From Crocinitomicaceae bacterium (GTDB lineage: Bacteria; Bacteroidota; Bacteroidia; Flavobacteriales_D; Sanyastnellaceae): a DNA stretch of 38,472 nt. Made by a program: the position numbers and the translations under genes. Below are positions 12,762-28,300 of this stretch, one piece after another (the first letter of the stretch is position 1; each line of letters opens with the position of its first letter). Location: NCBI GenBank assembly GCA_040382375.1, contig JBEIFO010000001.1:1-38472 (forward strand), written 5' to 3'. The notes under the pieces are model-generated. The model was not told where the DNA came from, ran no database searches, and saw only the letters and a program-made list of their open reading frames with translations.

Positions 12762-14834
12762 CTAATCAAGCTCATTCATTAGTTGTTTTTGTTCGTTTGC
12801 GCCGAATTTAAACTCTTTCACTTTACTTATTATACAATCAGCATCACACTTGCCATTTTTAACCTCCTTTTTGATTTCTTCGAATTTCGCAGCTTTTTGA
12901 GCTGGAGTTAGAGGTTTTGTCTTTGCCTTTTCTGCAGCTGCTCTTTCCGCAGCTGCTTTCTCTGCAGCTACTTTCTCTGCAGCTGCTTTTTCCGCAGCTT
13001 TTGCTTTATCCGCTGCACTTTCATCTGTTTTTCTTTTTTCTGTTTCTGTGAAGTCCTTATTATCAGCTTCACCTTCGGTTTTTTTTACTTCTTGTTTAAA
13101 TCTTTTATTCCATTCAACTAATATAAAGGGTATATCAGTTTTTCCAGGAGCACCCCAACTTTCATCGCTATCCGATGTTTTCATCTCCCACTTTCCTCCG
13201 ATATAGCGATAGGTGCTGCCATTTCCATAACCAGCGGTTTGTCCTCCAAATTTACTACCTGTATCAGTTAATAGAGATTTTTCCACACGATAAGTCGTGC
13301 CATTGTATGGGAATTCAATATGATTATTTGCAATTTCAGCAGGTTTAGGTGTCACTGGTCCTGGAGGTTCAGGGTCTTTTGGTGGTTGCGGATCCTTTGG
13401 CCCCTCAACTTCATGTGAAAACCAATTATCCCAATTCATAGCCGCGAAAAAACCACCACCTGTCAATGCAATGGCCACAAATGCCATTACTGCTATTTTA
13501 GCTATCGGCTTTTCGTTCTTTACCCATTTTTTACTGACAAGAAATTGATATTTCTCCTGCATTTTTTTATCAAAAGGAGAAGCGCCATTTAGTCTTTTAG
13601 GCCAGCCCTCAATAGTCTTCAGCCATTCATTTTGTTTAACAAGAATTGTTGATCTGTCTCTGGTTGTAACTTCCTTGTAAATATGTACAATGTCATCCTG
13701 AATATCAGAATTCGTCTGCATTCGGCGCCAGTTCTTAAGCTTTATCTTCGAATCTGAAGGTAATCTTGATTCGAGCTGATTTTTTTGAAGTCTAGTCTCA
13801 ACAGCGTTAATTGGTATGCCGTATTCGTGTTTTTCGGCTTTATTAATATCATTAACTAGCTCATCAATTTCCTTTTTCTCGTTTGTGAGTATTTGATTAT
13901 CTAAAAGATTTTGCCAATTAAGCAGAGCTTTTTGTTCATCACCAGTTAGTTGATTGGTAATTTTTGGGAATTGAGCCAACAGATTTTCACACGGAGAATA
14001 ATCAGTTGAATTGTTCTGAATGAATGAACTAATTAGGTTTTTTAGTTGAAAGACTGCGCTTGAATAGTGCATTTCAGATTTCCAATTCTCGAACAAAGTG
14101 CGCTCATTTTCATTGAGTGCCGATGAAACTGTGTTATATAATTCATTCGCCTTCTGAAAATTCGATTTTGCACTCAGAAGGGCTCTGAATTCCACAACAC
14201 TTTGCGATCTTTTTTGATTTTCTTGATTTATTTGCCCCAGGTTCAATTGCTGAGTAGATAAATTCAAATGAATTGGTAATTCCGGATTGCTTCCGGTCTG
14301 CATGAAATAGACTTCATCACCAATATAATCATTTAAGTTAAGTTCAGACTCATTCTGAAAGTAACACACGGTATTGTTACCAATAGAGCGGGCATTTCCG
14401 GACGATAAGGTTAAATTGGAAATGACACTTCGAACTTGATCATTGGTGAACATGTTCGTGCGAATCGTATAGTCAGCATTGCGGGTTTTGTATAGTTTTT
14501 TTAGGTTTTGTAATCCGTCTTTAATACTCCCGCCAATGATATTCGACTTTGGACAAACAATGCTATAAACAAGGTATGTTTCTCTTCCTGCAATGTCTTG
14601 GTGCGATTTGTCTACCAAAGAATAGATTTGGTATTGGTGATCTTGCATGAGAAAATAAAAATCTCGTTGACCAGATCGAAAAGCAACGTCTTTTGCAGAA
14701 GTGAAATAATGACAAATATTGTCGTAGTCCTGAATTTCAGACGCCTCTGTTAGCCTGTTTCTCTCGGGGAAAAGAGCTGTGCCCTCTGTAAAACCATAAC
14801 GTACCCCCCAAATATAAACTTGAATCGTATTCAT
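12762..14834 (-). CDS. large bitopic membrane protein: ~450-aa cytoplasmic domain + TM + Pro-rich spacer + periplasmic module; GTPase partner candidate
   Basis: The ATG at 14834 lies 4 nt after the GTPase stop; the alternative GTG at 14858 would overlap it by 20 nt. The TM is IAVMAFVAIALTGGGFFAAMNW, the Pro-rich spacer is PKDPQPPKDPEPPGPVTPKP, there is an (AEKAA)n helix, and the tail is KCDADCIISKVKEFKF. The N-terminal domain has no family I can name. Confidence 0.6.
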   Translation of the reverse strand: MNTIQVYIWGVRYGFTEGTALFPERNRLTEASEIQDYDNICHYFTSAKDVAFRSGQRDFYFLMQDHQYQIYSLVDKSHQDIAGRETYLVYSIVCPKSNIIGGSIKDGLQNLKKLYKTRNADYTIRTNMFTNDQVRSVISNLTLSSGNARSIGNNTVCYFQNESELNLNDYIGDEVYFMQTGSNPELPIHLNLSTQQLNLGQINQENQKRSQSVVEFRALLSAKSNFQKANELYNTVSSALNENERTLFENWKSEMHYSSAVFQLKNLISSFIQNNSTDYSPCENLLAQFPKITNQLTGDEQKALLNWQNLLDNQILTNEKKEIDELVNDINKAEKHEYGIPINAVETRLQKNQLESRLPSDSKIKLKNWRRMQTNSDIQDDIVHIYKEVTTRDRSTILVKQNEWLKTIEGWPKRLNGASPFDKKMQEKYQFLVSKKWVKNEKPIAKIAVMAFVAIALTGGGFFAAMNWDNWFSHEVEGPKDPQPPKDPEPPGPVTPKPAEIANNHIEFPYNGTTYRVEKSLLTDTGSKFGGQTAGYGNGSTYRYIGGKWEMKTSDSDESWGAPGKTDIPFILVEWNKRFKQEVKKTEGEADNKDFTETEKRKTDESAADKAKAAEKAAAEKVAAEKAAAERAAAEKAKTKPLTPAQKAAKFEEIKKEVKNGKCDADCIISKVKEFKFGANEQKQLMNELD
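12930..13004 (-). repeat. in-frame 15-nt tandem repeat (about 5 units) encoding (AEKAA)n
   Basis: ttcYgcagctgcttt-like units repeat head to tail. The protein reads AAEKAAAEKVAAEKAAAERAAAEKAK. Confidence 0.7.
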
Positions 14835-14838
14835 GATG

Positions 14839-16191
14839 TTAGTTTGAGAATAATCCACGCACTCCTGTTTTATAGCGAGCGGTATGACTAATTACTTTTT
14901 CTGTGATTGATTGTGGGAAGGTATTTAACGATTGGTTTGTTCTCGGGTTGTAATCTACCAACAATTGTCCGAACGTACACTCTCCAATGGAATAGGCAAT
15001 AACATCCCACTCAAATTCGTATTTGCTAGCTAAATCGAGCATTCGGTTTTTGAATGAGCCGTAATATTCCGAAACATATTTTCCTGCACGGTCGTCATAT
15101 TCAGACATCGGGCAATTAAACATATCAGCCTTTGTAACCACTAAATAAATGCTGTCCGTGTTATCCAGAATACCCATGGTTTCCAAATTATTTAGCACCA
15201 TGATCAAATTCAAACTTTGTTCAAAGGCATCGGCACCGTCATTATCTACCGAGTAATCAAGTACAAAGAACAAGGCCTTTGAGTTGTTGTTTTGAAGGTA
15301 GTTCTTATGCTCATTGAAATTACTTTGTCCTTCTGTAGCTACACGCTCGAACTTCTCACCCGCCATGTCTAGGATATTAATGGGCAAGTCGTATTTAATT
15401 CGAGTAGTTTTTCCGAGGAATCCCTTTTTGTCTTCTTCAATAGAAAGTATTACTTCAATGTAGTCAATGAAATTGTTTGGGTTCCCAATGGGAAGAATTC
15501 CTTTTGAAAATCCACCGCCTAGAATTCTGAAGTATTGTGAGCTTCGCGGGTTGGCAACTTCCGGGTTACAAATTCCAATGCGCATCCAGTGGCTAAGCAT
15601 ACTTGCAATAAGGCAAGATTTACCTGCTGACGGCATTCCTAAGAAATAAAAATCTGTTCGGTCTTTTTGCAACGGAGGTAAACTAGAAAAGTCAACAGCA
15701 GGCATTTGCTGCATGGTGTACTTTCGAATGCGCTCCACCATGGATTGATCTAAATAGCATCTATTTATTAAATCGTTTTCCGATATATCGTCGTTGAGCA
15801 GTGCCTCTTGTATTTGGCTAACAGTTATCTTTCTTCTGACAATTCGATCAATAAGTTGCGCATTGTATGATCCAATAGGAGGTGCCGAAGGTGATGGATT
15901 AGAGTAATATATTGGTTCCGGTTCAGGTTGTGCTTCTGGACCGAAGATTTGATCAATACGCGATTGATGCATACCGGCGCCTACCAGCGTCTCTTTGGAA
16001 ATGTTTTCTTGATTAACTCTTTTTTTAGTAAGTTCTAAATCAATGTTATTGAGCTTTTCAACATTTAATCCGTATTGAATAAGACAGTTCAATTCGAAAT
16101 TATGAATGCGAATAAAGTTGTCTATTTCCGTTTGTCCGTATGTATTAATAGAGTTTAATACAGGCAGTTGGTTTGGCGTAGCATTGCACAT
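14839..16191 (-). CDS. Ras/Rab-like (TRAFAC-class) small GTPase domain protein with a novel N-terminal region
   Basis: G1 is FLGMPSAGKS (15616-15639), G3 is ILDMAGE (15355-15369) and G4 is LVVTKAD (15124-15135), in canonical order. I prefer the ATG at 16191, 26 nt after the upstream stop. The track ORF extends to a TTG at 16389 but would then overlap the upstream gene by 172 nt. Confidence 0.65.
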   Translation of the reverse strand: MCNATPNQLPVLNSINTYGQTEIDNFIRIHNFELNCLIQYGLNVEKLNNIDLELTKKRVNQENISKETLVGAGMHQSRIDQIFGPEAQPEPEPIYYSNPSPSAPPIGSYNAQLIDRIVRRKITVSQIQEALLNDDISENDLINRCYLDQSMVERIRKYTMQQMPAVDFSSLPPLQKDRTDFYFLGMPSAGKSCLIASMLSHWMRIGICNPEVANPRSSQYFRILGGGFSKGILPIGNPNNFIDYIEVILSIEEDKKGFLGKTTRIKYDLPINILDMAGEKFERVATEGQSNFNEHKNYLQNNNSKALFFVLDYSVDNDGADAFEQSLNLIMVLNNLETMGILDNTDSIYLVVTKADMFNCPMSEYDDRAGKYVSEYYGSFKNRMLDLASKYEFEWDVIAYSIGECTFGQLLVDYNPRTNQSLNTFPQSITEKVISHTARYKTGVRGLFSN

Positions 16192-16217
16192 ATGGGTAAT
16201 GGTTGTATAGGTAAAGG

Positions 16218-17156
16218 TTATGAGCCAAACTGTCTTCCTTTCGTAAGGAAGTATGGCAATAGAATGAACATTTGAAACAAGAGAATCACAATAATACTTG
16301 AAGCTCCAAGGTGCTTCTTCGCTAAATCTATCGGGTGATTTATAAGCGTATTTTGCATGAATGACTTCTGAGGTACTGAAAGCTGGCAAGTGTTCACCGT
16401 TCTCGATTTAAGTTCGTTGTTGAGTGCTTCGTTATCTGCTGTAATCTTTAAGTTAAGTTGTTCCAATGTATTGGTTATTTCCATTCTGTTCCAATTGGAA
16501 ATATTCTGCTTTGCTTTTTCGAAGTATGCAACTTTATCATCACCTATAAGTTCTATAGGTTTCAGTGCAAACTCTTCGTTCAAATAGGCAGTTCTTTTCT
16601 GAAGTGCTTGTGCTAGGTTAGGTTGGCTCTTTAAATTATTTATACAGCCCTCGTCGCAATTGAAAGGCGCGGCGTTTAAAGTAGCAGTCACACTTGCGTT
16701 TGCACCTCCCTTGAGCGCATTGATGTTTGTAATAAACTGAGACTCCAGAGTAGAGGTGAAAGTTTGATATTGGGTTTCGTAATCCGTGTATATTTCTTCC
16801 AATCCTTTTACTTTATTCAATCCAATTTTTTTAATTTCTTCTTTTTCAAAAAATTCAACATTCACAAAGTGAAGGACAAAAACAGATAGGGTCAAGTTAA
16901 TGAAGGCGTATAATCCAAACATGGCATAGAAGCTTGTTGGGTAGCCCTTCCTTTTTCTGTTTTCTTTTTCCCAACAAAATTTAATAATTAAATAATAGAT
17001 GGCAACAACGAAAATGACGCTAATGAGCCCTGCGATTAATATGTTACCGCTGAACATATAAAGTCCACCAATAAAACTAAAAAGTAAAGTAAGAATAAGT
17101 CCAAAGGCTTGAACGAGTTGAATGTAGAGCTTAAAGTTATTTTGTCTAGCTTTCAT
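16218..17156 (-). CDS. polytopic membrane protein with a central coiled-coil/soluble loop, unknown function
   Basis: 312-aa ORF. N-terminal helices are FGLILTLLFSFIGGLYMF, ILIAGLISVIFVVAIYYLII and FYAMFGLYAFINLTLSVFVLHFV. A ~170-aa polar region follows, then a C-terminal helix SSIIVILLFQMFILLPYFL. Confidence 0.55.
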   Translation of the reverse strand: MKARQNNFKLYIQLVQAFGLILTLLFSFIGGLYMFSGNILIAGLISVIFVVAIYYLIIKFCWEKENRKRKGYPTSFYAMFGLYAFINLTLSVFVLHFVNVEFFEKEEIKKIGLNKVKGLEEIYTDYETQYQTFTSTLESQFITNINALKGGANASVTATLNAAPFNCDEGCINNLKSQPNLAQALQKRTAYLNEEFALKPIELIGDDKVAYFEKAKQNISNWNRMEITNTLEQLNLKITADNEALNNELKSRTVNTCQLSVPQKSFMQNTLINHPIDLAKKHLGASSIIVILLFQMFILLPYFLTKGRQFGS

Positions 17157-17218: not shown

Positions 17219-19408
17219 TTAATTTCTGATTTTATATAGCGCCTGATTAATTTGAATAAGTGGTGGACAATTGGCTTCAGACATAGGTTTTGCTGTTTCG
17301 TGAAGAATCTTTAAAACTTCAGCATTGGTTATGTTTGGCTTAACAGATTTAAGCAATGCAATGCACCCCGTTACAATAGGTGCTGCCATACTAGTGCCGT
17401 CCATAAATTCATAATTATTTCCTGGTACTGTGCTGAAAATCTTCTCTCCAGGCGCTGAAATGTAATTTACCGAAGTGCTATTCGCCTCAGAGAAATTGCT
17501 AAAAGAGGCTTTTCTTAGATTTTCATTGACCGCAACAACTTTTAATACTTGTTCTGAGCGCTGCATAGGATCTAGTCCAATTAATAGGTTCTCGTTGCCA
17601 CCCGCCAAAACAATAAGTGTATTGTTCTTTTCAGCCATATTGAAAAGCTCTTTCCAAAAGGCTTCTTCATCTTTTTCATCATTGGCTTTTATCTGTTTTT
17701 GGTCGTCTAGACTTAAGCGCTTTGCAGCTTCACCGTAGTATTTCCCGAGTGACATGTTAATGACATCAGCTTTTTTGTTTAAAGCGTACAGCACCGCATC
17801 TACAATATCGGTCGTTGTAAAAAACTCGCCGTCTCCGCCAATTTGAACAGGCATAAAGCTGCAATTTGGAGCAATTCCCGCGCCTCCAATTCCATTGTTT
17901 GCGTTAGCAAGAGCAAGACCGGCCACGTGTGTTCCGTGAATAATCTCTCCACCCCCGGTTACCGATGTATTTCTTAGGGGAATATTGTATGGGAACAAAA
18001 TTCTTTTTCCCGAGAATTCTGAATGAGTTAAATCGAAGCCGTCATCTATAACCGCAATGCAAACGCTTGTGTCTCCCATGGTTACATCCCAAGCCTCAGG
18101 TGCATGAATAGCACGAAGAAACCAGTTTTTATCTGCCATGAATGTGCTAGGGTCATTTGTAGTTTTTCCGCTGTGAAATACACTTTCATCCCACATAAGT
18201 AAGTTGTAGGAACTGAGTTTTGTCCGGATCTCATTTTTTATCGTACTCGAAAGTTCTTCAGGATAACTCAGTTGAATACGCTGCGTTTGATCATCGAAAT
18301 AAACTATTTCATAGCTGTCGTCTGGAAATGATTGTTTCAACGAGATGGCCATTCTTTTGAACTCTTCCTTTTTATCAACCATTGCAATGTTCAGGAGCCC
18401 ACCAACGATTATTCTGCCTGATTCATCGTCTTCTCTGAATTGAGCAGTGTCAATGGGAATAGATCTGTGCCTTGGTTCATCGGGAGTAATCTCTTCAAAA
18501 TGTTCATTGACCTCTTCTTCATTTAATTCACTCACATTTATGCCATCTAGGCCGTTACATGTTTTAAATAGCAGGAGAGCAATCAGTAGTGCCAGAATTA
18601 GAAACAACCACCAAAATCGTTTAAAGAATCTTTCGAACCCGTCGAGCATACGGTAGAACAGCGGCTTTTCTTTTACTGGCAATACCTTCGGCGCAACCGG
18701 CGCAGGTGCTGCTTCTTCAATAGTTTCAACTGGCTCTTCGGGTACAGTGCTTTCTTCTTCTGCTGAGGCTATCGTGTATTCAGGTGTTGTTTCAGCTTCA
18801 GCCGAAGGCGTTGGTTCGTTTTCAACGTTCGCAGTGGATATTTCATTTTGAACTTCCGCCGGCTCAGTTGAATAGACTTCAGGCGTTTCGTGTTCAATCG
18901 CTGTGTTTTCATCGATTGCGCTCTCAACGGCACTTGCCGCAATGATGGAGGACTTGTACTCGTCGAAAGGAACGGTATAGTCAAGTTGCTTGTTTGTTTT
19001 AATTCCCCAAACGACTACAATTTGAGTTCCGTTAGAGAATAGGAAAAGGTGATTTGGATTGAAAGCACTTTGTAAGATGCTTGCCCAAAGTTGTTTGTCG
19101 AAATCTTCAGATTGCGCCAAATACAAACATTTGGTTTCTATTTCATGTTTTCGAGCATTGTAAATCTGAAGGAGTTTAGCTTGATTTTCTTTTGGAAGGT
19201 CTTCGATTTTTTGGAATTCACCATCAAGAGAAGTGAACCAATCCAATGAAGTTCCCTTCTTTTCTGGTTTTGCTAAAAGATGGTGATACTCCGGTGGGAA
19301 ATTTACTTTTATGAATTGTTGAATCTGATTGAATTGCTCATACATATAATTGATATGATTTGAGACCAATTCGAATTCATTTATCGACGAAGTGAAGAAC
19401 TTTTTCAT
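17219..19408 (-). CDS. membrane-anchored subtilisin-like serine protease (peptidase S8) with an N-terminal cytoplasmic domain
   Basis: 729-aa ORF. The S8 triad sits in canonical contexts: AVIDDGFD (Asp455, ~18044-18046), HGTHVAGLA (His491, ~17936-17938), GTSMAAPIVTG (Ser673, ~17390-17392), plus the oxyanion Asn in LAGGNEN. Upstream of the S8 domain are a ~150-aa N-domain, an acidic/Pro-rich linker, a TM (RFWWLFLILALLIALLLF) and a propeptide-like region. Confidence 0.8.
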   Translation of the reverse strand: MKKFFTSSINEFELVSNHINYMYEQFNQIQQFIKVNFPPEYHHLLAKPEKKGTSLDWFTSLDGEFQKIEDLPKENQAKLLQIYNARKHEIETKCLYLAQSEDFDKQLWASILQSAFNPNHLFLFSNGTQIVVVWGIKTNKQLDYTVPFDEYKSSIIAASAVESAIDENTAIEHETPEVYSTEPAEVQNEISTANVENEPTPSAEAETTPEYTIASAEEESTVPEEPVETIEEAAPAPVAPKVLPVKEKPLFYRMLDGFERFFKRFWWLFLILALLIALLLFKTCNGLDGINVSELNEEEVNEHFEEITPDEPRHRSIPIDTAQFREDDESGRIIVGGLLNIAMVDKKEEFKRMAISLKQSFPDDSYEIVYFDDQTQRIQLSYPEELSSTIKNEIRTKLSSYNLLMWDESVFHSGKTTNDPSTFMADKNWFLRAIHAPEAWDVTMGDTSVCIAVIDDGFDLTHSEFSGKRILFPYNIPLRNTSVTGGGEIIHGTHVAGLALANANNGIGGAGIAPNCSFMPVQIGGDGEFFTTTDIVDAVLYALNKKADVINMSLGKYYGEAAKRLSLDDQKQIKANDEKDEEAFWKELFNMAEKNNTLIVLAGGNENLLIGLDPMQRSEQVLKVVAVNENLRKASFSNFSEANSTSVNYISAPGEKIFSTVPGNNYEFMDGTSMAAPIVTGCIALLKSVKPNITNAEVLKILHETAKPMSEANCPPLIQINQALYKIRN

Positions 19409-19442
19409 GTTTGAAATCTTTACTGTTTGTATGTGATAATTT

Positions 19443-20198
19443 CTATTTTACGAAAGTTAGAATTTGGGTGGCTCTGTCGAATCTCAAAACGCCAATTTTT
19501 TCGGCTTTCCCACACCCTCCCAAATTTTTAATTCGATGTGGAAAGGAAATGACGTTGCCAACTTCTTCTCCGCCATCGTTTATAAATTGAAATTTATCTT
19601 TGCGCATGGTTCCCCCTTTGTAAGCTCTAATATCAAGTGACATCTTCCCGCTGTCTTTTCGAGTATACCACCACGCTTTGCAAAGTACTTCAATGACATC
19701 GTTTTCTTTGAAATGATTGACATCGATGTAAACCGATTCAACACCGGTTCCTTGGTTATCAAGACTCCAATATAACCCCTCAGCATCGCGATCTTTGCAA
19801 AAACCCAATTCATTCCCCTTCTCTGGAGAAATGATTCTGGTTCTTGTATCTAGATCCGTCCCTCCGCTTGCGTCGAATTGGTAAGTAATGATGATATAAT
19901 CGGCGGGTAGAAATATTTCATTAGAATCTAATGGAGGAGTAATTTCTTTTCTACAATTACAGCATTGATCCAAATCGCGACGAATGTTTACAATCAAAGA
20001 GTCGATGCTTTCTTTTTGTGAGCAATTGAAAACTGAATCAGCAGGCGACTTCTTTAGAATGAAAAACAAGAGCAATGAAATGAGTGCAGCCCAAACAAGG
20101 TAATTGAACCACCAGTATCGAAAGGAAAACCAGGAGTAGCTGCGAATGGATTTTCCCCACCATTTGTTTTTTATACTATGATTCTTTGTGGTTAGCAT
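19443..20198 (-). CDS. anchor-module paralogue 3: short basic N-terminus + TM + CCNC motif + unique C-terminal domain
   Basis: 251-aa ORF. The N-terminal ~90 aa (KWWGKSIRSYSWFSFRYWWFNYLVWAALISLLLFFILKK...DSLIVNIRRDLDQCCNCRKE) is nearly identical to the neighbouring 20202-20945 protein. The C-terminal ~160 aa is unrelated to it by eye. Confidence 0.6.
   Translation of the reverse strand: MLTTKNHSIKNKWWGKSIRSYSWFSFRYWWFNYLVWAALISLLLFFILKKSPADSVFNCSQKESIDSLIVNIRRDLDQCCNCRKEITPPLDSNEIFLPADYIIITYQFDASGGTDLDTRTRIISPEKGNELGFCKDRDAEGLYWSLDNQGTGVESVYIDVNHFKENDVIEVLCKAWWYTRKDSGKMSLDIRAYKGGTMRKDKFQFINDGGEEVGNVISFPHRIKNLGGCGKAEKIGVLRFDRATQILTFVK
19954..20170 (-). repeat. conserved 5' anchor-coding segment, copy A (direct repeat of 20701-20917)
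   Basis: About 217 nt align without gaps to 20701-20917, at roughly 85% identity by eye. The downstream (3') coding parts do not align. Confidence 0.7.
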
Positions 20199-20201
20199 GA
20201 A

Positions 20202-20945
20202 TTAATCGCAGGTTATTTTGCAAGATCCAAAGCTCCAAGGTCTCATGTCAGTTCTACTCCATTTGCGCACGGATTGTGGATAATTACGTTGTAATTCACC
20301 AGTGTAAGTGTCAGTATTACAGTGAGTATAATTAGGATTATCTTTTAGCAAGACATTATTAATGATCGCTGGGCCTTTGACATCAAGCACCACAGTTCCT
20401 TTGAAATTCTTCTCACTATAAATTACCAGTCGGGTATCCTTATCTATGGCAATTCCATCAAAGGATTTGTCAACAGCCTTTGGGAAGGCGGCTTCATTCG
20501 ATGGATACTCTCCGGAACCGACATATTCACTGAAATCATCGGTTACGTAAATTTTTGAAATTCCGACGGGGTCATATTCACCCCCCATGATTCCGCCGCT
20601 GAAATGTACCCGGCAGTTTTCAGATGGTCCTTTCGGACGAGTGTCTTCGACAGGTGGTGGTGTTGGTTCTTTTATCGGAGGGGGAGGTACTTCTTTGCTG
20701 CAATTACAGCACTGATCCAAATCGCGACGAATGCTTACAATCAGAGAATCGATACTCTCTTTTTGCGTGCAATTGAAAACTGATTCTGCAGGCGATTTTT
20801 TTAGAATAAAAAACAGAAGTAATGAGATGAGTATGGCCCAAACGAGGTAGTTAAACCACCAATATCGAAATGAAAACCAAGAGTTATTTCGAATGGTCTT
20901 TCCCCACCATTTTGACTTTATAATATTGTTTTTCTTTGTGGACAT
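20202..20945 (-). CDS. anchor-module paralogue 2: short basic N-terminus + TM + CCNC motif + unique C-terminal domain
   Basis: ATG at 20945; the track start at 20948 is a TTG one codon upstream. The anchor is KWWGKTIRNNSWFSFRYWWFNYLVWAILISLLLFFILKK...DQCCNCSKE, followed by a Pro-rich PPPPIKEPTPPPVEDTRP stretch and a ~140-aa beta-rich domain ending in SFGSCKITCD. Confidence 0.6.
   Translation of the reverse strand: MSTKKNNIIKSKWWGKTIRNNSWFSFRYWWFNYLVWAILISLLLFFILKKSPAESVFNCTQKESIDSLIVSIRRDLDQCCNCSKEVPPPPIKEPTPPPVEDTRPKGPSENCRVHFSGGIMGGEYDPVGISKIYVTDDFSEYVGSGEYPSNEAAFPKAVDKSFDGIAIDKDTRLVIYSEKNFKGTVVLDVKGPAIINNVLLKDNPNYTHCNTDTYTGELQRNYPQSVRKWSRTDMRPWSFGSCKITCD
20701..20917 (-). repeat. conserved 5' anchor-coding segment, copy B (direct repeat of 19954-20170)
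   Basis: See copy A. The two copies are 747 nt apart, head to tail, in adjacent genes. Confidence 0.7.
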
Positions 20946-20957
20946 CAATAAGTTAAT

Positions 20958-21659
20958 TTATTCGCAACAACGTGTGTAATTGAAATTAATGTTGAAGTTT
21001 TTTCCGGAATTCATTTGATAGGGTATGTTTTTAATTTTACAAGGGTCTGAAAGTTCTTTGCCCATTAGCAGGTAATTTCTTATTTCGATTGTACCGAGGT
21101 TGTCGTTGTGATTATTCTGGGTGTTTTTTAGTCTTATTTTATTCTTCCCGAACTTAATAATTCTTGGATCGAAATAATAAATATTCATGTTGCTAATCGG
21201 GCATATAAAATCAGATTGCTTAATTAAAATGCTATGATCATTGGTTGCTAAGAAAACGGAACCCACTTGTTGATTAGTGTTCAAGTCTAATTTGCCGATG
21301 TTCACTTCGTTTAAATACACGTCGAAATTGTCGTCTTTTGCAGCATTGGAATTGCACACTTGAAAGGCAAGTATTCGATCGGGACAATCAACTGCGATGG
21401 AATCTACTTTGTTTTTAGCGCAATTACAGCAATTTTCGAGTGCGATCTTAATCTGTTCAATAGAAGAATTAACCTCATCAACTTGCGGACAGTCAGCGCT
21501 TAGAGTGTCAGTTTTGAAGTAGAAAAACCCGAACAAGAAGAGAGCCGCTAGGAGGAGCATCCAATTGAACCACCAATAACGGAAACCGAAATAATTTCGT
21601 TCACGAATCGCGCGTACCCACCATTTTTTGAATATTCCTGACTTTCTAGTAATTGCCAT
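20958..21659 (-). CDS. anchor-module paralogue 1 (more diverged): short basic N-terminus + TM + CCNC motif + unique C-terminal domain
   Basis: 233-aa ORF. The anchor is KKWWVRAIRERNYFGFRYWWFNWMLLLAALFLFGFFYF...IKIALENCCNCAKNK. A ~150-aa beta-rich domain follows, ending in YTRCCE. Confidence 0.6.
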   Translation of the reverse strand: MAITRKSGIFKKWWVRAIRERNYFGFRYWWFNWMLLLAALFLFGFFYFKTDTLSADCPQVDEVNSSIEQIKIALENCCNCAKNKVDSIAVDCPDRILAFQVCNSNAAKDDNFDVYLNEVNIGKLDLNTNQQVGSVFLATNDHSILIKQSDFICPISNMNIYYFDPRIIKFGKNKIRLKNTQNNHNDNLGTIEIRNYLLMGKELSDPCKIKNIPYQMNSGKNFNINFNYTRCCE

Positions 21660-21682
21660 TGCAGTTAATATAAATTCAGAAA

Positions 21683-22555
21683 TTATTTCTTAACGTAAGT
21701 TGTGTCGCATCTTTCATGCACGCGATTTTGCAGGTCTAGTAACTCTTGTTTAGTTTTTTCTAAATCGTTACACATTGCACCGCAATCAGGTTTGTTGCAA
21801 GATTTGCAGAGCCAAATGATTAAAAGCGTGTAAATGATTAGCCAAAACAATCCCCAAAAGCGGTACGAAATCCATCTGAGAATTCGTTTAATTCTTTCCC
21901 AAAATCCAACGCGATGCTTTACTATAGCAGGATCGATTATTGGAACTACCGGAATGGGCTGCTCTTCTTTAATTGCACCGCTTGTCGGTTGCTCTGTGTA
22001 TTGAGTATTTTGAAAAGTCGGTTGCACCGGAGCAGGTATCACAGGTTCTTCTTGTCTAACCTCGGGCTCGCTTACGGGAACAGCTGGTTTAATTGAGGGT
22101 GGAAGAACAGGCAGTCTATTGTCATTCTGTGTTTTGAAATCCCAGCCCCATAACATTCCCCAGTCTCCGTTTTCATTACCGATAAGAATTATTTTGTCGT
22201 GCTGAAAAAGAGTGTCAAGTAAATTCCCCCATTCTTTGCTATCTATGTCTTTTTTAGCAGTAAGCGGGTATGAAATGGATTTGCACTTTTTTAGGAATTG
22301 GTCGAATTCTAATTTTAATTGCTGTGCCCTTTCTTCGGAAAGCTCATTTATTTTTGAGAACGAGCCGTTCATATTGCCATACCATGCAATTTCACCATTG
22401 GCATTGAGGACAGGCTTAAGCAACTTATCAAGTTCCTGAGGACTCAACTTACCCCTTAAGAACGAAATGATAATTTCATAGGTGTCATAGAGATAGCGAT
22501 CTCTAAATGAAATTGGGGTGTAGTTATTACTGTACGTAGAATATAATAAGTTCAT
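21683..22555 (-). CDS. bitopic membrane protein: N-domain homologous to that of the S8 protease + Pro-rich linker + TM + short Cys-rich tail
   Basis: The ATG at 22555 lies 1 nt after the upstream stop (TAAAATG); the track start at 22564 is a TTG. The N-domain aligns with residues ~40-145 of the 729-aa protease. The TM is WGLFWLIIYTLLIIWL, followed by CKSCNKPDCGAMCND...RCD. Confidence 0.6.
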   Translation of the reverse strand: MNLLYSTYSNNYTPISFRDRYLYDTYEIIISFLRGKLSPQELDKLLKPVLNANGEIAWYGNMNGSFSKINELSEERAQQLKLEFDQFLKKCKSISYPLTAKKDIDSKEWGNLLDTLFQHDKIILIGNENGDWGMLWGWDFKTQNDNRLPVLPPSIKPAVPVSEPEVRQEEPVIPAPVQPTFQNTQYTEQPTSGAIKEEQPIPVVPIIDPAIVKHRVGFWERIKRILRWISYRFWGLFWLIIYTLLIIWLCKSCNKPDCGAMCNDLEKTKQELLDLQNRVHERCDTTYVKK

Positions 22556-22556
22556 T

Positions 22557-25319
22557 TTAAACAAAATTTAATGATTCTATCTCGTCGATTAATTCCTTTA
22601 GCTTGTTGTTCTCTTCAACATTGTACTTCCTGAATCCGCAGTTGGATAGAAGTATCAGTTGTACTTTGGTAATAAAGTTTTTATAGTGGTCAACCACTGG
22701 AAAAGTTACAGGTAAAATATTTGAAGAGCTGTCTTCTTCAAATAAATTAATTAATTCTTGATCAGATATGTTCTTACTTTTCGTGAGTAGAGAAGAAGTA
22801 TCAATGTTGAAAGTTTCTGCTAGTTCTAGAACAAGTTCATTTCTTTCTTCAGACATGAAGTTGAATCCGAAGTTGGAAACAAAGTCGTTGACATAGAATG
22901 TTATGATTGAGGCAAGATATTCATCGGTATCGTTAGAAACGCGCATTAACCTTGTTTTCTTTTCAAATAAATGAATGAGTTCTTGACGCACTCCAAATAT
23001 TTCAAAGGTTTGAATTAAGTTCTCACTAATTATTTTAACAGCCCCCAGATCGAGGCCTTGACTGGTATAGTCCTTGAAATTCTCAAGTTCTAATTTAGAT
23101 TTCCAAATTTCAATTACCCCATCAACTAAAGTGCTTGCAGCGGTTATGTGAACGTTTTTCAGAACTTCTGAAAGATCTATATTTTGAGCATTGAGCCATT
23201 CTTGCAATTGAGCAGGTGACTGCAAATTCTGTTTTTCCATGAGCATTCTCTCATTTTCCTCAACAGATTTATTTAGATCTAAGTCGTATGTTCGAATAAT
23301 AACCTCTTCGCGGGTAGGGGTGTGGTCGTTAGATGCAGGCAGGTAATGCTCATGAATGAAATTGTACGTTTCCGTATTCGAGATATAAAGTTTGGAAAGA
23401 AATTCTCCGAACTTCGAACCATTCGCAGTGAAAAGATTTAAGAGTTGCGTTCGAACTTTCTTACCATCATCCGCTGCCTGCTTTCTTTGATTCTGTATGT
23501 CATCTGTTTTATAATGCGATTTCAGATTCTTTAAAGTCAAGGTTTTGAAGCTTCCAAGTTTACTTGAATAGTTCTTCGTCTTAATTAAATTATTAGCAGC
23601 CGGGTACAGATCATTAATTATTCGTTGGCTTCCGTCTTTATTCGGACTTGATGATTCTTCCCAGGCCTCCAAAGGATTTCTGAAATGCTCTTTGATGTAT
23701 GGATATTTAGTGAAGCTTTCTTTTAATCGATTGTAGTAATCGAGTTTCTCTTGATGAATACCCGTTTCCTTGCCGCTTGCATGGAACCCCGAGAAGACGT
23801 CTTCTGAAAACTGATAATCACGAAGCATATAAAAGCTCTTAAACATGGCTTCGCTTGTGGTCCAATTCTCGTCCCAGTCATTGGCTTTGGTAACAGTTTC
23901 TTCTTTGAAAAGTCTGACGAATCGTTTTTCCCATTTCTCAGCAAGCTCGCCCTGATCAGAATTTGGGTTGAACTTCAACGTTTCATTGTAAAAGGTAAGT
24001 ACAACGAACAATGGGCTAGTTCCTGAATTTCCAATTCTTTTTTCACGCTCATCAGCATTTTCACCTACGTTTCTTTTAATCCAATCGTTAATTAAAAGAG
24101 GTATTTCCTTTACCTCGTTATTTCTATTGAATAGACAAAAGAGAAGGTTGTTAATTTCGTAGTTGGAAGAATACTTGTTGAATAAATAAGATACCTTACC
24201 TCTTAAAAATAAAGAAGGAATGGTACTCCTTTTTAAATCGCTTTGTTCGAATGGTTTTCTAGAACGTGCCCCAGGGAAGTCTAATAAGTCAGTGTTATGT
24301 AAAAAAGGTTTTTCCTCGGCTACTTCGGGGCTCAGAGGCATAGAAATTTCTGCAGTAAGAGCACTCAGTATATGAACGTCAATGGTAACTTGTTGTTTGT
24401 TCGAAAGAAGAATGTTAATATTCTCCTCGCGATCTAATATCCCTTCAACACGCATAACATCAAGGATCTTTCCTTCGTCGCGGTGTATTGCACTTTTATT
24501 AACGTAAACAGTAGTTTCGTAATTTAGAATTGAGAGTGCAGATAATAATTTTCGAAATAGTTCACTGAAGTTTTTGTCGAATGCCCAAATAATTTCGAAT
24601 AGTTCAACCCAACGCATGGGTTCTACTTTAGGAATCATATCTGCAATTTCAGCCCAAAATGCACTTTGTGAAAATTCGACAGCTTTTGAGCTGGCACGTT
24701 CCAAATAGTTTTCGAAATACTTTTTTAAATAATAAATATGATCCTCATTCAAATGCGTTTGGTTGTGAGTTGAATGAGCCAAGCTTTTCTTGAAATTCTC
24801 GAGATGTGAATCTATTTCAGCCGTCGAAGGATAAGATTCGAGCTTAATAATATCTGAGAAAAAACTATCGCTTAATATCAGCAATACATCTTTTGTATCT
24901 AAAAGCTTAACTTTTATTGGATAATCATTGCTAATGATTTTTGAATCAATAGTGAAGCGGCTAACTACTCCAGTACTTTCTGTTCCACCACCTCTTGGAT
25001 TTATGGACTGAAGAAAATCGATGTTCTCATTGGGAAGCTGAATCTCTAGATTCTTGTGCTCAGATGAAAGTAGGTTTTTTACAAGGTACGATTTACCCAC
25101 TTGGCTCACGCCGAAAAGTGCGAAAACAGGTTTGGTTTCTACACTGTCTTCTATCGTTTTTATTTCAGACTTCGTCTCCAGTAATGAATTTAACATTACC
25201 CCTTTCTCCTCAAGACTTAAATTCTCCTTTGTCCACCCTGCGGCAGAGGACATCAGTTTATGAAATTCTAATGATTCTTTTCGAAGTTGAACAAGTTCTT
25301 CTTTGCTGTAATTCTTCAT
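22557..25319 (-). CDS. large P-loop GTPase, SrfC-like (putative virulence factor family), dynamin-sized
   Basis: 920-aa ORF. Walker A/G1 is FALFGVSQVGKSYLV (25089-25112), followed by INPRGGGTESTGVVSRFT, and G3-like LLDFPGARS (24270-24281). It starts 5 nt after the SrfB-like gene. Gene order and size match my recollection of srfB-srfC. The assignment has not been verified by a search. Confidence 0.6.
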   Translation of the reverse strand: MKNYSKEELVQLRKESLEFHKLMSSAAGWTKENLSLEEKGVMLNSLLETKSEIKTIEDSVETKPVFALFGVSQVGKSYLVKNLLSSEHKNLEIQLPNENIDFLQSINPRGGGTESTGVVSRFTIDSKIISNDYPIKVKLLDTKDVLLILSDSFFSDIIKLESYPSTAEIDSHLENFKKSLAHSTHNQTHLNEDHIYYLKKYFENYLERASSKAVEFSQSAFWAEIADMIPKVEPMRWVELFEIIWAFDKNFSELFRKLLSALSILNYETTVYVNKSAIHRDEGKILDVMRVEGILDREENINILLSNKQQVTIDVHILSALTAEISMPLSPEVAEEKPFLHNTDLLDFPGARSRKPFEQSDLKRSTIPSLFLRGKVSYLFNKYSSNYEINNLLFCLFNRNNEVKEIPLLINDWIKRNVGENADEREKRIGNSGTSPLFVVLTFYNETLKFNPNSDQGELAEKWEKRFVRLFKEETVTKANDWDENWTTSEAMFKSFYMLRDYQFSEDVFSGFHASGKETGIHQEKLDYYNRLKESFTKYPYIKEHFRNPLEAWEESSSPNKDGSQRIINDLYPAANNLIKTKNYSSKLGSFKTLTLKNLKSHYKTDDIQNQRKQAADDGKKVRTQLLNLFTANGSKFGEFLSKLYISNTETYNFIHEHYLPASNDHTPTREEVIIRTYDLDLNKSVEENERMLMEKQNLQSPAQLQEWLNAQNIDLSEVLKNVHITAASTLVDGVIEIWKSKLELENFKDYTSQGLDLGAVKIISENLIQTFEIFGVRQELIHLFEKKTRLMRVSNDTDEYLASIITFYVNDFVSNFGFNFMSEERNELVLELAETFNIDTSSLLTKSKNISDQELINLFEEDSSSNILPVTFPVVDHYKNFITKVQLILLSNCGFRKYNVEENNKLKELIDEIESLNFV

Positions 25320-25324
25320 TCTGT

Positions 25325-28300
25325 TTAAGTTCTTGAGTTAATAGACAAAGTGAATTCTGCCGTGTCGAACCAATATCCGTTTTCGCTGGCCAGCGTAATA
25401 AGTTTTATTGTGAACATTGAATTGGAAATACTATCTCCATTCGCATCTACAACTTCTTCAAGTTCTAGTTTTTCTCTGTCAATGTCAAATTCGCGGCTTA
25501 CCTTAAACGTGAATGGAAGCTTCGCATTATTCTCATTTATGATATTTTGATACACGTTAGCGAAATTTCCAGGATTATTCATGGTTCTGGATTTGGCTTG
25601 ATTACTTATGAAAAGTTCATTGTAATCTATTTGATAAATATATCGAGCTGGATAATTGTTAGAATCTACTTTCTTCATTCCTATTTGAAGAGGAATGTAG
25701 TAGGCGTTAAAGCTAATTTGTTTTTGCTCAGGATTCATGATCACATTTGGAATGACATTATCTTGAATTTGTCCTAAATAATTCGCGGTCGATTGTAATC
25801 TCATTTTAAGTTCGTCGGCATTTATTTTGAACTTATTTAATTTAAAAAACTTCGTGCCCATCAGTCCAATTAGAGCTCCAGTGGCTACAATTGTCTTGGG
25901 ATCTTTGATGTATCCGTTGTTATCTGAAAAAGGGTACCATTTGCCAATCCAATAGTTATTCAAATTAATAAACCTGTTCGGCTGCACTGGGTGTATCTCC
26001 AAGAAAAGTTCTTCAATAGCTTTTAAATTACAAGGTCTTCCAGATATAATAATGAAATCACATCTGTAGAGGTGCATTAATTTTGCAACTTGCTTAATTA
26101 ATTTTGAAAAAGTGAAGCGTACAACGTTATTTACTTTTTTAGGATTTAAGTTCCATGTTAAATCTTCAAATCGGAATCCAAAATGTTCATGGAAATAATT
26201 CAACAGATCATCACTCGGCTTGTTGTCAGCAAATAGCTCTTGATAGCTCACTGTTTCGGATTGAGAGTTATTTGCAATGTCAAGGTACTTATGGGCAATA
26301 GGTATACCAATTTGGTTTAAGAAATTAACACGCATCATGCGTGTTAAATAGCTCATAGTGGCAGCATCTCTTCCAAAGAAACCGTTGATTTTCTCTCTGA
26401 TTTCATTCCCAATAACGGAGTATCCGAAGTTTTCAATAACACCTGAACATCCTATGTCATCAGGTGAAAGTTGCGCTCCTTCTATAATTATTGATTGAAT
26501 AATATTTTTAATTAGATCATCACCGGCCAAATGAAATCCTTCGAAATATAATGGTTTTGGTTTTAGTTCGGTAGAATTGTTAAACGTCAACTCATATTCG
26601 CAGATCATTAAATCGGAGGTGCCTCCTCCAATATCAAGTGATCCTATGGTTAGCACTTTTTTATCATCTGGCGTTTTGTGACCGAAAATATTAAAGAGGT
26701 CAGTCGGGTTTCCATCGAATTTATGTTGAATCAGCCCATACATGAAGACAAGCTGACTGCATGTAGCTTCGTCATAGATCCAATCAACTCTGTCCTCGAG
26801 TGGCTCGTCGTGATTTTTCCTTAGGTCGGCAATTCTAGGTATAATATCAAAAGAATCAGCGACCATTGGGCTAATTACTGCTCCGCTTGAATTTATTTTT
26901 TTAGAATAATTTGAAAGCATTTTCACAGCTTCTTCTGCGCATTGTCTTAACGCCACTTGCTCGGCTTTTATCATTCCAATAGGACAGCTAATTACAACAT
27001 GTCGTAATCTTCTTCTAGAATTTGGTTTGCCATGAATGGATCGAAACTCAAAAGAGTTGAACTGTGCAATAGCTTGGGAGAAAATCTCTAAAAACAAAAA
27101 TGTCATTAAAGTCTTTCTCGAGTAAAGGGGCAATGCTCCGAAGGCGTCATCTGAACAATACGCTCCGTCACTCTTTAACTGTTCTGAAATGCCTTTTTTA
27201 TAGACGTTTTTAGGTATTTCAGCTGCATTATCATGGAATTTCCATGGGGTCTTAGACGCTTTTTTATCCCATAGATATCGCTTAGGACTTGAGTTGAATG
27301 ATTTTGTTTCTTGTTGTATATTTCGCTTTACTTCGAATGCATGAATGAGGTTTTCAGCTTCAAAACCAATTCTGACAGGGCTAGGCCATAAAAACTTTTC
27401 TTGGCCCGCAAAAAAAGAATCCTCTAATCCGAATTTTTCATCTCGAAACACAATTCGAGTAGAAAATGCTTCACCATATGATTTCGAAGGGTTACTAAGG
27501 TCTCTTATTTTTAATTTCTTTACTTTGTTAAAGTTAATCTCACCCTCTGTGGGTGTTTCGAAAAGTATAGCGCAAGTATGAGAATTCCCAACATCTATTG
27601 AGAGATCTAGATCAATAACATCTGATTGGTCACTGAGCAACTGAATCGTGGGTAATTGCATACTCGATTTCAATAACCGAAGCAAATGAATGTAACTCGC
27701 GAGGTGCTTGGTTTGCGAGTCTGTAGCATTGAATTTGAATAAACTCTTTAGCCAACTTTCCACCCAACCGCAACCAGTGAAATCGCTGAGAAAACTCAAG
27801 ATGGAATCTTCGTTTTGACAGATATGGTATTTGTTCTCGTTGGGATTAGAATTTAGTAATGGAGTGTGATTTTGATTGTTCTCATCGGTTATCGTCGTGT
27901 CAATGGCGAGAACGAATTTTAACTCTGAAGACGCCTCAATGTATTCAAACCAACAACGAACCCAGTCAGTTGGCCCGAATAGATTATCATTGATTTGATT
28001 GTTTTTAAAGTAGGGTAATGGAATCCATTTTTTTTCAAATTGCTTTAAGGTCTTTTCTATATTTCGTATGGAAAATGTTCTTTCTTCATCCTCATCAAAC
28101 AAATAAACATCAGAGCTAACAATTTTATTTATGGCTTCAATATCAGCAAGGCTATCGCGATCAATTCGTAATTTTAGCAGATCAGATTTACGGATGAGTT
28201 TACCAAGACTTTTTATTTCAATCAACTCTTCGAACCAATACTTCATGGTAAGGCTATCGATCCCTTCGAAATAATTGAACCTTAGAGCTCTGAATTTTTG

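Follow-up and report, generated by a model that had tools for sequence, protein, structure and literature searches.

The widespread SrfABC system bears the annotation 'virulence factor' and lacks an agreed function. The described examples used here as comparators are the SsrB-regulated factor operon of Salmonella, the 'SrfABC toxin' of Xenorhabdus stockiae and the SrfA of Haemophilus parainfluenzae. The proteobacterial SrfA is composed of an N-terminal domain (SrfA-N), a disordered linker, a transmembrane (TM) helix and a Cys-containing, lipocalin-like periplasmic domain (bioRxiv 10.64898/2026.09.18.752743). In the papers retrieved on SrfA, SrfB and SrfC we found no description of an array of several SrfA paralogues or of SrfA forms without the N-domain, nor of an anchor family rich in tryptophan and arginine (W/R-rich), of an exchange of the C-terminal domains ('heads') or of homology between heads and phage proteins. 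Here we report a locus whose sequence points to all of these. It lies in a stretch of 38,472 nucleotides (nt), hereafter the window, which is contig JBEIFO010000001.1 (positions 1 to 38,472, forward strand) of assembly GCA_040382375.1, from an uncultured freshwater Flavobacteriales bacterium. By its gene content it is classified as an SrfBC locus, and the five genes downstream of srfB and srfC are all SrfA paralogues, which fit the SrfA architecture and not the NCBIfam score. The heads have recombined with their anchors repeatedly, at a junction just after a CCxC motif, and alignments indicate that all three heads of the short paralogues are homologous to domains of phage proteins. We hold the structural and evolutionary part of this account with high confidence. 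An initial annotation of the window had drawn attention to the anchor shared by the five proteins and to upstream NTPases, which are identified here as SrfB and SrfC. Its view of the architecture and evolution of the genes held up for the most part; the main additions to it are the SrfA-family identity and the phage homology of the heads.

The operon begins with srfB and srfC, followed by open reading frames (ORFs) for proteins of 293, 233, 247/248, 251 and 729 amino acids (aa), and then by ORFs of 312, 516, 698 and 247 aa. The genes are co-directional on the minus strand and tightly packed, with gaps of 3-35 nt across the region 17219-22564. The features from srfB to the 729-aa gene are listed below, in the order of transcription; the label p followed by a length denotes the protein.

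25325..28369, minus strand: srfB, 1014 aa, first gene of the operon; matches PF07520 (SrfB) over residues 3-1004, its full length, with an E value of 3.4e-183.
22557..25319, minus strand: gene of an srfC-like P-loop NTPase, 920 aa, directly after srfB; PF10139 (Virul_Fac), E 4.4e-119.
21683..22564, minus strand: SrfA-short (p293), 290-293 aa, with a predicted SrfA-N-like domain, a Pro-rich linker, an anchor and a Cys-bracketed stalk, and without a head; N-terminal part of NF040486, E 1.4e-6.
21710..21907, minus strand: anchor and stalk of SrfA-short, about aa 220-285, GFWERIKRILRWISYRFWG, TM helix, CKSC..C-x20-C, from hydropathy, spacing and hhalign.
20958..21659, minus strand: cassette 1 (p233, 233 aa), an anchor with an H2 head.
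21420..21632, minus strand: anchor and stalk of cassette 1, aa 10-80, KKWWVRAIRERNYFGFRYWWFN, TM helix, C-x19-CCNC, from the alignment and the helices of the AlphaFold2 (AF2) model.
20958..21398, minus strand: H2 head, an all-beta sandwich with conserved Cys; AF2 predicted local distance difference test score (pLDDT) above 90, viral homologues.
20202..20945, minus strand: cassette 2 (p247, ORF of 247/248 aa), an anchor with an H1 head.
20700..20918, minus strand: anchor and stalk of cassette 2, one copy of a direct DNA repeat, from the repeat comparison.
20202..20618, minus strand: H1 head, betagamma-crystallin-like predicted fold; AF2 pLDDT above 95 and Foldseek.
19443..20198, minus strand: cassette 3 (p251, 251 aa), an anchor with an H5 head.
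19953..20171, minus strand: anchor and stalk of cassette 3, which form the other copy of the direct repeat and share 83% identity with 20700-20918.
19443..19928, minus strand: H5 head; phrog_24956, E 1.9e-24.
17219..19408, minus strand: SrfA-S8 (p729, 729 aa), with a predicted SrfA-N-like domain, an acidic and Pro-rich linker, an anchor and a predicted periplasmic subtilase; N-terminal part of NF040486, E 1.5e-10, and PF00082.
18551..18661, minus strand: anchor of SrfA-S8, about aa 250-286, LFYRMLDGFERFFKRFWW, TM helix, KTC, from hydropathy, spacing and hhalign.

The initial annotation had described five adjacent genes with related motif strings in front of one TM helix each, and this description held: all five ORFs are present on the minus strand and contain the strings quoted, and hydropathy analysis showed a single such segment in every one of the five proteins, immediately C-terminal to the W/R-rich motif. 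It had also ascribed KWW..IR and CCNC to all three short proteins, and indeed their residues 1-85 have 30 invariant columns, which include KWW..IR, FxFRYWWFN and CCNC, and beyond these residues the proteins are unalignable. The CCNC motif had been placed about 45 residues after the TM helix; this distance is right when counted from the start of the helix, but is about 28 residues when counted from its end. Likewise, Cys-containing tails had been attributed to all three C-terminal domains, which does not hold for p251, where the last Cys lies 21 residues before the C-terminus. Three classes of protein carry the motif, i.e. the cassettes, the S8 class and the 293-aa class, and in all of them the spacing is identical: W0, [WF]1, [IL]5, an aromatic residue at 10-11, [RK]14, [YF]15, W16 and W17.

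Since aromatic and basic residues are frequent at the cytoplasmic ends of TM helices, the five might be unrelated single-pass membrane proteins that resemble one another by chance or through composition. Profiles of the 44-residue juxtamembrane and TM windows of the three classes, built from the collected homologues, were compared by hhalign, with forty column shuffles, in which the juxtamembrane and TM parts were shuffled separately, as controls. The results showed that the cassettes align with the S8 class from 2-43 to 2-43 with a score of 38.0 (probability 96%, E 3.7e-9), against 10.2 +/- 2.4 and a maximum of 15.9 for the shuffles, and with the 293-aa class, again in register, with a score of 26.0 (probability 86%, E 5.5e-6), against 10.2 +/- 2.9 and a maximum of 20.9. 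The in-register scores are thus 5-11 standard deviations above the shuffles, and a generic TM composition effect, which the initial annotation had named as the finding that would speak against its idea, does not account for them. When the stalk was added, 63 columns of the cassettes and the 293-aa tail aligned (probability 92.7%, E 4e-7). Together with the eight identically spaced positions, the fusion of the motif to SrfA-N in other genomes and its absence from a canonical SrfA and from other bitopic proteins of the window operon, these results make a compositional origin extremely improbable. We concluded from the profile scores and the 63-column alignment that the shared element is a true homologous module, longer than first described. 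All five proteins have a W/R-rich juxtamembrane helix on the predicted cytoplasmic side, then a TM helix and a cysteine after it, and four of them also have a predicted periplasmic stalk helix bracketed by Cys.

The consensus of the anchor family is KWWxRxIRxxN[YW]FxFRYWW[FL], a TM helix and C-x19-CCxC. A word-indexed protein search with the 85-aa anchor profile gave no match. An exhaustive HMMER search with this profile over 1.84 billion representative proteins yielded 46 clusters (counted at 50% identity) at E<=1e-3, of which 13 were at <=1e-10; most are proteins of 190-250 aa with an N-terminal anchor. The full-length profile search collected 130 proteins of the anchor family. In six of the 46 clusters (407-450 aa) the anchor lies at residues ~190-280 and is preceded by an SrfA-N-like domain; the N-domain of P0057 matches p729 with E 3e-12, and P0059 and P0177 match SrfA_fam. 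Two of these SrfA-N and anchor proteins end in heads seen in the window, P0039 in the p251 type and P0043 in the p233 type. The gene order of the sister loci is SrfB-SrfC-317aa-[SrfA-N+anchor+H2]-cassette-S8.

The assignment of the five genes to SrfA is based on these fusions together with the N-domains in the window. The N-terminal ~200 residues of p729 and p293 align with each other and with the NCBIfam SrfA model NF040486; the matches to the model, confined to its N-terminal ~200 profile positions, reach 41.1 bits for p729 and 28 bits for p293 and fall far short of the cut-off of 150 bits. The architecture of SrfA, namely SrfA-N, a linker, one TM helix and a periplasmic Cys domain, is found in p729, in which a subtilase domain (PF00082, E 1.6e-45, aa 448-707) lies C-terminal to the TM helix, and in the headless p293; the short proteins have it only from the TM helix on. 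The three short proteins have no match in Pfam or NCBIfam, SrfA_fam included. Because their anchor and heads are fused to SrfA-N in other metagenomes, the three short genes are SrfA paralogues minus SrfA-N, to which SrfA-short is the complementary form, with a cytoplasmic domain, anchor and stalk and without a head. The lipocalin-like SrfA-C is marked by an FLNGxW motif and four Cys; this motif was not found in any of the five window proteins; the sequence FLNGNW is present in the Rahnella SrfA.

We considered the W/R motif as a general feature of SrfA and rejected it, as the motif is absent from the canonical SrfA of the Rahnella plasmid, whose TM helix is ordinary. An SrfA/S8 fusion on a Runella plasmid carries it (APWWKRFWWVWLF). 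The motif seems to be confined, in the loci examined, to those of the Bacteroidota type.

The TM helix is preceded by 8 Lys/Arg and followed by conserved Cys pairs. This charge bias, the Cys pairs, the occurrence of OmpA-like and S8 heads (one related head class is OmpA-like and peptidoglycan-binding, PF00691, E 9e-11) and the reported topology of SrfA point indirectly to heads in the periplasm, and we infer an N-in/C-out orientation. The helix pattern of the AF2 models of p247 and p233 was also counted in its favour. In phage copies of the H2 head from three contigs (L025, L051 and L034) a CCDC or CxxC lies just upstream of the domain, like the CCxC at the end of the host stalk; hence the Cys cluster may belong structurally to the head and not to the anchor.

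The genes of 247 and 251 aa had been reported to share about 217 nt at roughly 85% identity and to be unrelated thereafter. We measured 83.4% identity over 217 nt between 19954-20170 and 20701-20917, and complete divergence past CCNC: identity between cassettes 2 and 3 drops to 27-40% within ~30 nt past the CCNC codons. A repeat finder extended the direct repeat to 270 nt at 80%, with a spacing of 747 nt. Of the codon differences between the two anchors, 24 are synonymous and 9 non-synonymous, which points to purifying selection and not to recent conversion as the reason for their similarity. The longest identical run is 21 nt. The initial annotation had thought this repeat long enough for homologous recombination; with 83% identity and a 21-nt run the present repeat is a poor substrate, whereas past recombination at the junction is clear from the related loci.

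Related loci were found on contigs reached through the orthologues of p729 and p293, to which a genome scan added metagenome-assembled genomes from lakes labelled Flavobacteriales and Crocinitomicaceae. Time series from the lakes Mendota, Zurich and Erie are the source of these genomes and of the viral contigs considered below. In the full-length contigs the order of genes is constant: SrfB, SrfC, SrfA-short, cassettes, SrfA-S8, a multi-TM protein of ~310 aa, a GTPase of ~450 aa and a bitopic protein of 600-790 aa. Two short fragments (L017 and L019) agree with this order as far as their sequence extends. All-against-all BLAST distinguished at least 6 head classes, which comprise H1 (p247 type), H2 (p233 type), H3, H4, H5 (p251 type), OmpA-like, vWA-like and others. 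The initial annotation had proposed that cassettes be counted and compared in related strains; their number and content do vary, with 1-3 cassettes in each of the related Flavobacteriales loci and none in the distant Runella. The arrays, with the loci given by their L numbers, are as follows.

H2-H1-H5: the window, L012, L013 and L016
H1-H3-H5: L001-L003
H1-H4: L004 and L011
H3-H4: L007-L010 and L018
H4-OmpA: L005 and L006
H2-H4: L019
H2-H3, possibly more: L017
H1-H5: L021
H3 alone: L020
No cassette: Runella (distant relative)

The histories of anchors and heads are discordant. In L004, L019 and L018 the anchors at position 1 share 76-82% identity and bear unrelated heads (H1, H2 and H3, respectively). 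When the window is compared with L012, identity is 70-75% for the heads but only 43-46% for the H1 and H5 anchors; inside each of these two genomes the H1 and H5 anchors are 89-94% identical to each other. At the DNA level, identity between loci is 75-93% over the end of SrfA-short and the first anchor, 35-55% over the head and 70-88% over the next anchor. We concluded from this discordance that heads have been exchanged between anchors and that neighbouring anchors have been homogenised, which bears out the earlier idea of a constant anchor with interchangeable heads. The differing numbers and combinations of heads between genomes are the outcome of repeated recombination after the CCxC motif.

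The same tandem direct repeat (217-270 nt at 80-83% identity) and the homogenised anchors inside genomes are also what one would expect if cassettes were switched at high frequency within one lineage, by programmed recombination between the repeated anchors, as in phase or antigenic variation. We consider this very improbable. All cassettes are complete genes, each with a start codon and an anchor of its own; identical runs reach no more than 21 nt and the differences are mainly synonymous; and the same array is found in contigs from different samples (L001-L003; L007-L010; L012, L013 and L016). Signals of a recombinase or of inverted repeats were sought at the locus, and no recombinase and no convincing inverted repeat was found, so there is no hint of programmed switching.

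Several further observations concern the arrays. In the small sample of 13 distinct arrays the order of the heads is always H2 < H1 < H3 < (H4 or H5) < OmpA, and H4 and H5 never occur together; a fixed order would fit differential loss from a longer ancestral array. Apparently decayed cassettes in L001 and L006 were rejected, since the stop-to-stop ORFs show intact anchors and the short calls result from the choice of start by the gene caller. The locus L020 (CAZKRL010000015.1) is of the Flavobacteriales type and is binned as 'uncultured Comamonadaceae', which is probably a binning error and not a transfer to Betaproteobacteria. Two metagenomic proteins of 302-305 aa (P0175 and P0179) carry an H1 head on a different scaffold, with another TM helix and a beta-rich domain, which indicates that the H1 head is mobile beyond the SrfA-like anchor.

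The heads of the window cassettes belong to no Pfam family, and the three family profiles found no sequence relative in the PDB. The Foldseek search of AlphaFold models that had been suggested for the C-terminal domains was run for the p247 and p233 heads. The AF2 model of p247 (54 sequences) has a mean pLDDT of 85, and above 95 in the head, with helices at 13-27, 29-50 (the TM helix) and 61-79 followed by a beta domain. Nearly all top PDB matches of the H1 head are betagamma-crystallins (E 3e-3, probability ~1.0, TM-score 0.6-0.68 on the target), among them a domain from Flavobacterium johnsoniae and the Myxococcus Protein S. The sequence YSEKNFKG in p247 can be compared with the betagamma-crystallin signature Y/FxxxxY/FxG. 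With an E value of only 3e-3 and no Pfam match, the evidence for a betagamma-crystallin-like H1 head is weak but consistent in these models. The model of p233 has a pLDDT of 80, and above 90 in the head, with helices at 13-27, 29-49 and 60-76; the head is modelled as a beta sandwich, for which the structure search gave no credible PDB match.

All three window heads have relatives in phage contigs. The p233 model matches two viral proteins of BFVD (E 1e-19, 36-44% identity), and the H2 domain is present over its full length in 37 IMG/VR contigs at 49-59% identity. In most of these contigs it forms the extreme C-terminus of a protein of ~1530-1625 aa, which is phrog_14478, 'virion structural protein' (E 3e-257), and is encoded within a block of virion structural genes; in L059 it lies in a 520-aa protein with a fibre-like N-terminus beside a tail-fibre gene of 1231 aa. 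Over its N-terminal 800 residues the large carrier has homologues among the structural proteins of cultured phages that infect Flavobacterium, Cellulophaga, Tenacibaculum and Maribacter. A tblastn search of GenBank phages found no match to the H2 or the H1 head; as cultured phages match the N-terminus of the carrier and not H2, the latter behaves as a variable C-terminal tip. All Cys positions of H2 are conserved between host and phage copies, and in a neighbour-joining tree the phage sequences stand mostly apart from the host clade, with the exception of L058.

The p251 head matches phrog_24956 over residues 97-217 (E 1.9e-24). Relatives of H5 include a virion structural protein of 1837 aa related to those of Flavobacterium psychrophilum phages, a 474-aa protein resembling the central tail fibre J, a crAss-like 'putative tail protein' and proteins of Xanthomonas and Stenotrophomonas jumbo phages. 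For the H1 head, a 51%-identical relative is encoded in viral contigs L062 and L063 by a small ORF that has a tail-fibre gene on one side and the genes of a holin and an endolysin on the other. The viral matches of H1 and H5 were obtained with alignments; single-sequence scans of the viral contigs gave none. The H3 and H4 classes also occur in viral contigs. When ten proteins of the locus were scanned against PHROGs, p251 was the sole match, and seven other operon proteins had none. The anchor was sought in 2.9 million viral contigs and was not found, which makes it improbable that the cassettes themselves come from phages as genes.

How such an array might work can be proposed from its composition. 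Since SrfA-short (an adaptor without a head) complements the cassettes (heads without an adaptor), a split SrfA is suggested. SrfA-N would dock the cytoplasmic NTPases SrfB and SrfC, as has been modelled for Haemophilus (10.64898/2026.09.18.752743). The constant module is probably a membrane co-assembly handle that links the cassettes to the complex of SrfA-N, SrfB and SrfC, and headed proteins without SrfA-N would join the SrfA-N-bearing paralogues through the anchor, possibly also through disulfides of the stalk. In this way a single cytoplasmic engine would be linked to one protease and to a variable repertoire of binding heads in the periplasm. The heads may bind the envelope ligand of the phage proteins or the phage proteins themselves, which is the least secure step of the mechanism, and the locus would sense or block phage entry at the inner membrane, with the subtilase as the only enzymatic output.

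We prefer phage sensing or exclusion because the heads copy modules of phage virions and vary between close relatives, and we judge it on balance probable, with modest confidence, that the full mechanistic statement is right, i.e. that the co-assembled SrfA array is an envelope-level device for sensing or excluding phages. Two further observations bear on a link to phages. The homologous locus on plasmid pSP2_1 of Runella sp. SP2 (L014, NZ_CP031031.1, 13995-29889) lies immediately downstream of a BREX-1 operon. In a CRISPR interference screen in Serratia, silencing of srfB led to moderate-to-high (partial) resistance to a nucleus-forming jumbo phage, with swimming largely kept (PMC11797060); this result shows some link to infection, and the direction of the link is not given by it. 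A more specific form, in which SrfBC loci would be envelope immune sensors that use captured virion-tip domains as periplasmic baits or competitors and relay phage engagement through the anchor to SrfB, SrfC and the subtilase, we regard as unlikely; if right, it would supply the long-missing function of SrfABC. The Runella locus itself is a minimal version, with SrfB, SrfC, the SrfA/S8 fusion, the multi-TM protein, the GTPase and a 784-aa bitopic protein, and without cassettes.

Several points weigh against a role in phage sensing or exclusion. The IMG/VR contigs are predicted viruses, not cultured ones, and H4 is so common among viral contigs (262 stretches) that this class lends little specific support to the link. 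The folds of the heads (betagamma-crystallin, beta-sandwich, OmpA-like and vWA-like) are generic binders, which phages could have borrowed. PADLOC-DB 2.0 contains no match to SrfB, SrfC or the cassettes, and only a generic subtilase model matches the S8 domain. The neighbourhood of the locus in the window is no defence island and holds xseA, a nitroreductase gene and a gene of a cargo protein of the type IX secretion system (T9SS). Heads anchored in the inner membrane cannot reach receptors at the outer surface, so that decoying or masking needs a periplasmic or inner-membrane target or the release of the head; possible periplasmic targets would be an envelope-penetrating virion protein or an envelope precursor. 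Finally, the anchor handle is clade-specific, the W/R motif being absent from the Rahnella SrfA.

Part of this evidence would also fit a phage-independent machine for envelope tethering, made of the NTPases, the inner-membrane SrfA paralogues and periplasmic or lipoprotein partners, in which the heads bind glycan, peptidoglycan or calcium and thereby fix or tune the complex; phages would have acquired the same modules independently because these bind envelope polymers of Flavobacteriia. The OmpA-like and vWA-like heads and the betagamma-crystallin fold agree with it, as do the location outside any defence island, the H1 heads on the other scaffold in P0175 and P0179, and the envelope-type genes downstream, most of which encode a single N-terminal hydrophobic segment and one of which has TSP_3 repeats. 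However, a turnover of heads among close relatives, in an otherwise collinear operon, would not be expected of a housekeeping tether, the 49-59% identity to a phage virion tip is high for an ancient shared module, and H2 occupies exactly the variable C-terminal position of the phage protein. We think of the tether as possible but rather unlikely.

The homology of the heads to virion and tail-fibre domains has yet another possible meaning. The locus might encode an exported toxin of the SrfABC type, whose heads would serve as receptor-binding selectors of the target, freed by S8 cleavage of the Pro-rich linker or carried by vesicles, in the manner in which tailocins reuse receptor-binding domains of phages. 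The Xenorhabdus SrfABC is cytotoxic and insecticidal (PMC6950479), vesicle export has been proposed for the SrfABC of Haemophilus and Xenorhabdus in a preprint (10.64898/2026.09.18.752743), and an S8 protease is encoded in the same array. Yet searches with Pfam, NCBIfam and PADLOC found no toxin-like enzymatic domain or immunity gene at the locus, the heads are predicted to sit on membrane proteins of N-in/C-out orientation that lack a cleavable signal peptide, the hosts belong to the free-living Flavobacteriales of fresh water, and export is speculative even for canonical SrfA. An exported toxin is therefore quite improbable here.

Downstream of SrfA-S8 the operon continues with four genes.

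16218..17156, minus strand: conserved partner, 312 aa, with several TM segments predicted from hydropathy; kept in the full-length related loci, including Runella.
14839..16389, minus strand: conserved P-loop GTPase, listed ORF of 516 aa with a TTG start; weak matches to DO-GTPase2 and MMR_HSR1, both below the cut-off; kept in the related loci that reach the GTPase gene.
12762..14858, minus strand: bitopic protein of 698 aa, with a cytoplasmic domain, a TM helix and an extracytoplasmic part.
11943..12686, minus strand: 247-aa paralogue of the 698-aa protein with a truncated N-terminus; the two match in the TM helix and the C-terminal part (BLASTP E 5e-40).

Since the listed 516-aa ORF shares 172 nt with the 312-aa gene upstream of it, and since its orthologues have 448-471 aa, translation of the GTPase probably starts within the listed ORF, at a codon downstream of the TTG. 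The similarity between the 247-aa and the 698-aa protein covers the TM helix (FFAxMNWxxWF) and the extracytoplasmic part. As among the SrfA proteins, a full-length protein is thus accompanied in the operon by a paralogue with a truncated N-terminus, and this pair is the second of its kind. A scan for sigma-70 promoters and terminators performed no better than on shuffled sequences, with a model that is unsuited to Bacteroidota. Elsewhere in the window, the plus strand encodes at 33119-38080 a protein of 1653 aa with PKD-like and Ig-like repeats and a T9SS C-terminal sorting domain, and T9SS cargo genes of this kind also flank the locus in L001 and L004. An ORF of 103 aa at 3877-4188 on the plus strand matches only the first half of a DsbA-like thioredoxin domain and may be a fragment or a mis-called gene.

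For a system as widespread as SrfABC, this locus shows that SrfA is divisible into a cytoplasmic adaptor and head-bearing parts that share a membrane module, which gives a concrete model of assembly. It is also a natural domain-swapping experiment with mapped breakpoints. As its heads are tied to phage virion proteins, and the phages concerned have relatives that infect the same bacterial class, the question of the role of SrfABC becomes sharper. If the link to phages is functional, a new logic of envelope-level immunity would emerge; if not, there would still be a new anchor family and several new domains shared between periplasm and phages.

Several known systems resemble the locus in part. 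The conflict systems with DO-GTPase and GAP1 (Kaur et al. 2020, PMC7159879) likewise combine constant NTPases and TM proteins with components that vary between close relatives; the likeness of the 516-aa GTPase is weak (20.1 bits for DO-GTPase2, below the cut-off of 27), the neighbouring 698-aa and 312-aa proteins match no Pfam family and hence no GAP1 model, and a term search of PMC7159879 returned no mention of SrfB or SrfC. The orphan cassettes of polymorphic toxins (Rhs, CdiA-CT/CdiI and MafB) also have a constant N-terminal and a variable C-terminal part, stand in tandem, recombine at a conserved junction and vary in content between strains. The window cassettes differ from them in that they abut (gaps of 3-35 nt, with no ORF between), are full genes with their own start and TM anchor and not silent fragments, and have neither an immunity gene nor a match to a toxin family; their heads are of binding-type folds, and their constant part is a membrane anchor and not a delivery domain.

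The exchange of tips in phage tail fibres and tailocins is based on the same principle of a conserved N-terminal attachment and a swappable C-terminal binding domain, and here H2 and H5, and less surely H1, are actual homologues. The window proteins, in contrast, are host-encoded, predicted to be anchored in the inner membrane towards the periplasm, linked to SrfB and SrfC, and equipped with an anchor that was absent from the 2.9 million viral contigs. Two other comparisons are mechanistic analogies only. Superinfection-exclusion and entry-blocking proteins, such as P22 SieA, T4 Imm and Sp and T5 Llp, are envelope proteins that hinder or sense phage entry, and have no sequence relationship to the proteins described here. 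The integrated decoys of plant NLR (nucleotide-binding leucine-rich repeat) receptors are copies of pathogen-related domains that the receptor bears as bait.

The closest system remains SrfABC itself. The window differs from it in gene order (srfB-srfC-srfA(n), against srfA-srfB-srfC in the known system), in the number of SrfA paralogues (five, three of them without SrfA-N, against one) and in the periplasmic domains, which are a predicted subtilase, a betagamma-crystallin-like domain and two uncharacterised beta domains in place of the lipocalin-like SrfA-C. It also has a W/R-rich juxtamembrane helix that the Rahnella SrfA lacks, adds a conserved multi-TM protein, a GTPase and a bitopic protein, and scores 28 and 41 bits with SrfA_fam against the cut-off of 150. 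What the two have in common is adjacent SrfB (PF07520) and SrfC (PF10139) and a bitopic SrfA, in which a disordered linker connects the cytoplasmic SrfA-N to the single TM helix, and a Pro-rich linker connects this helix to a beta-rich periplasmic domain that contains Cys.

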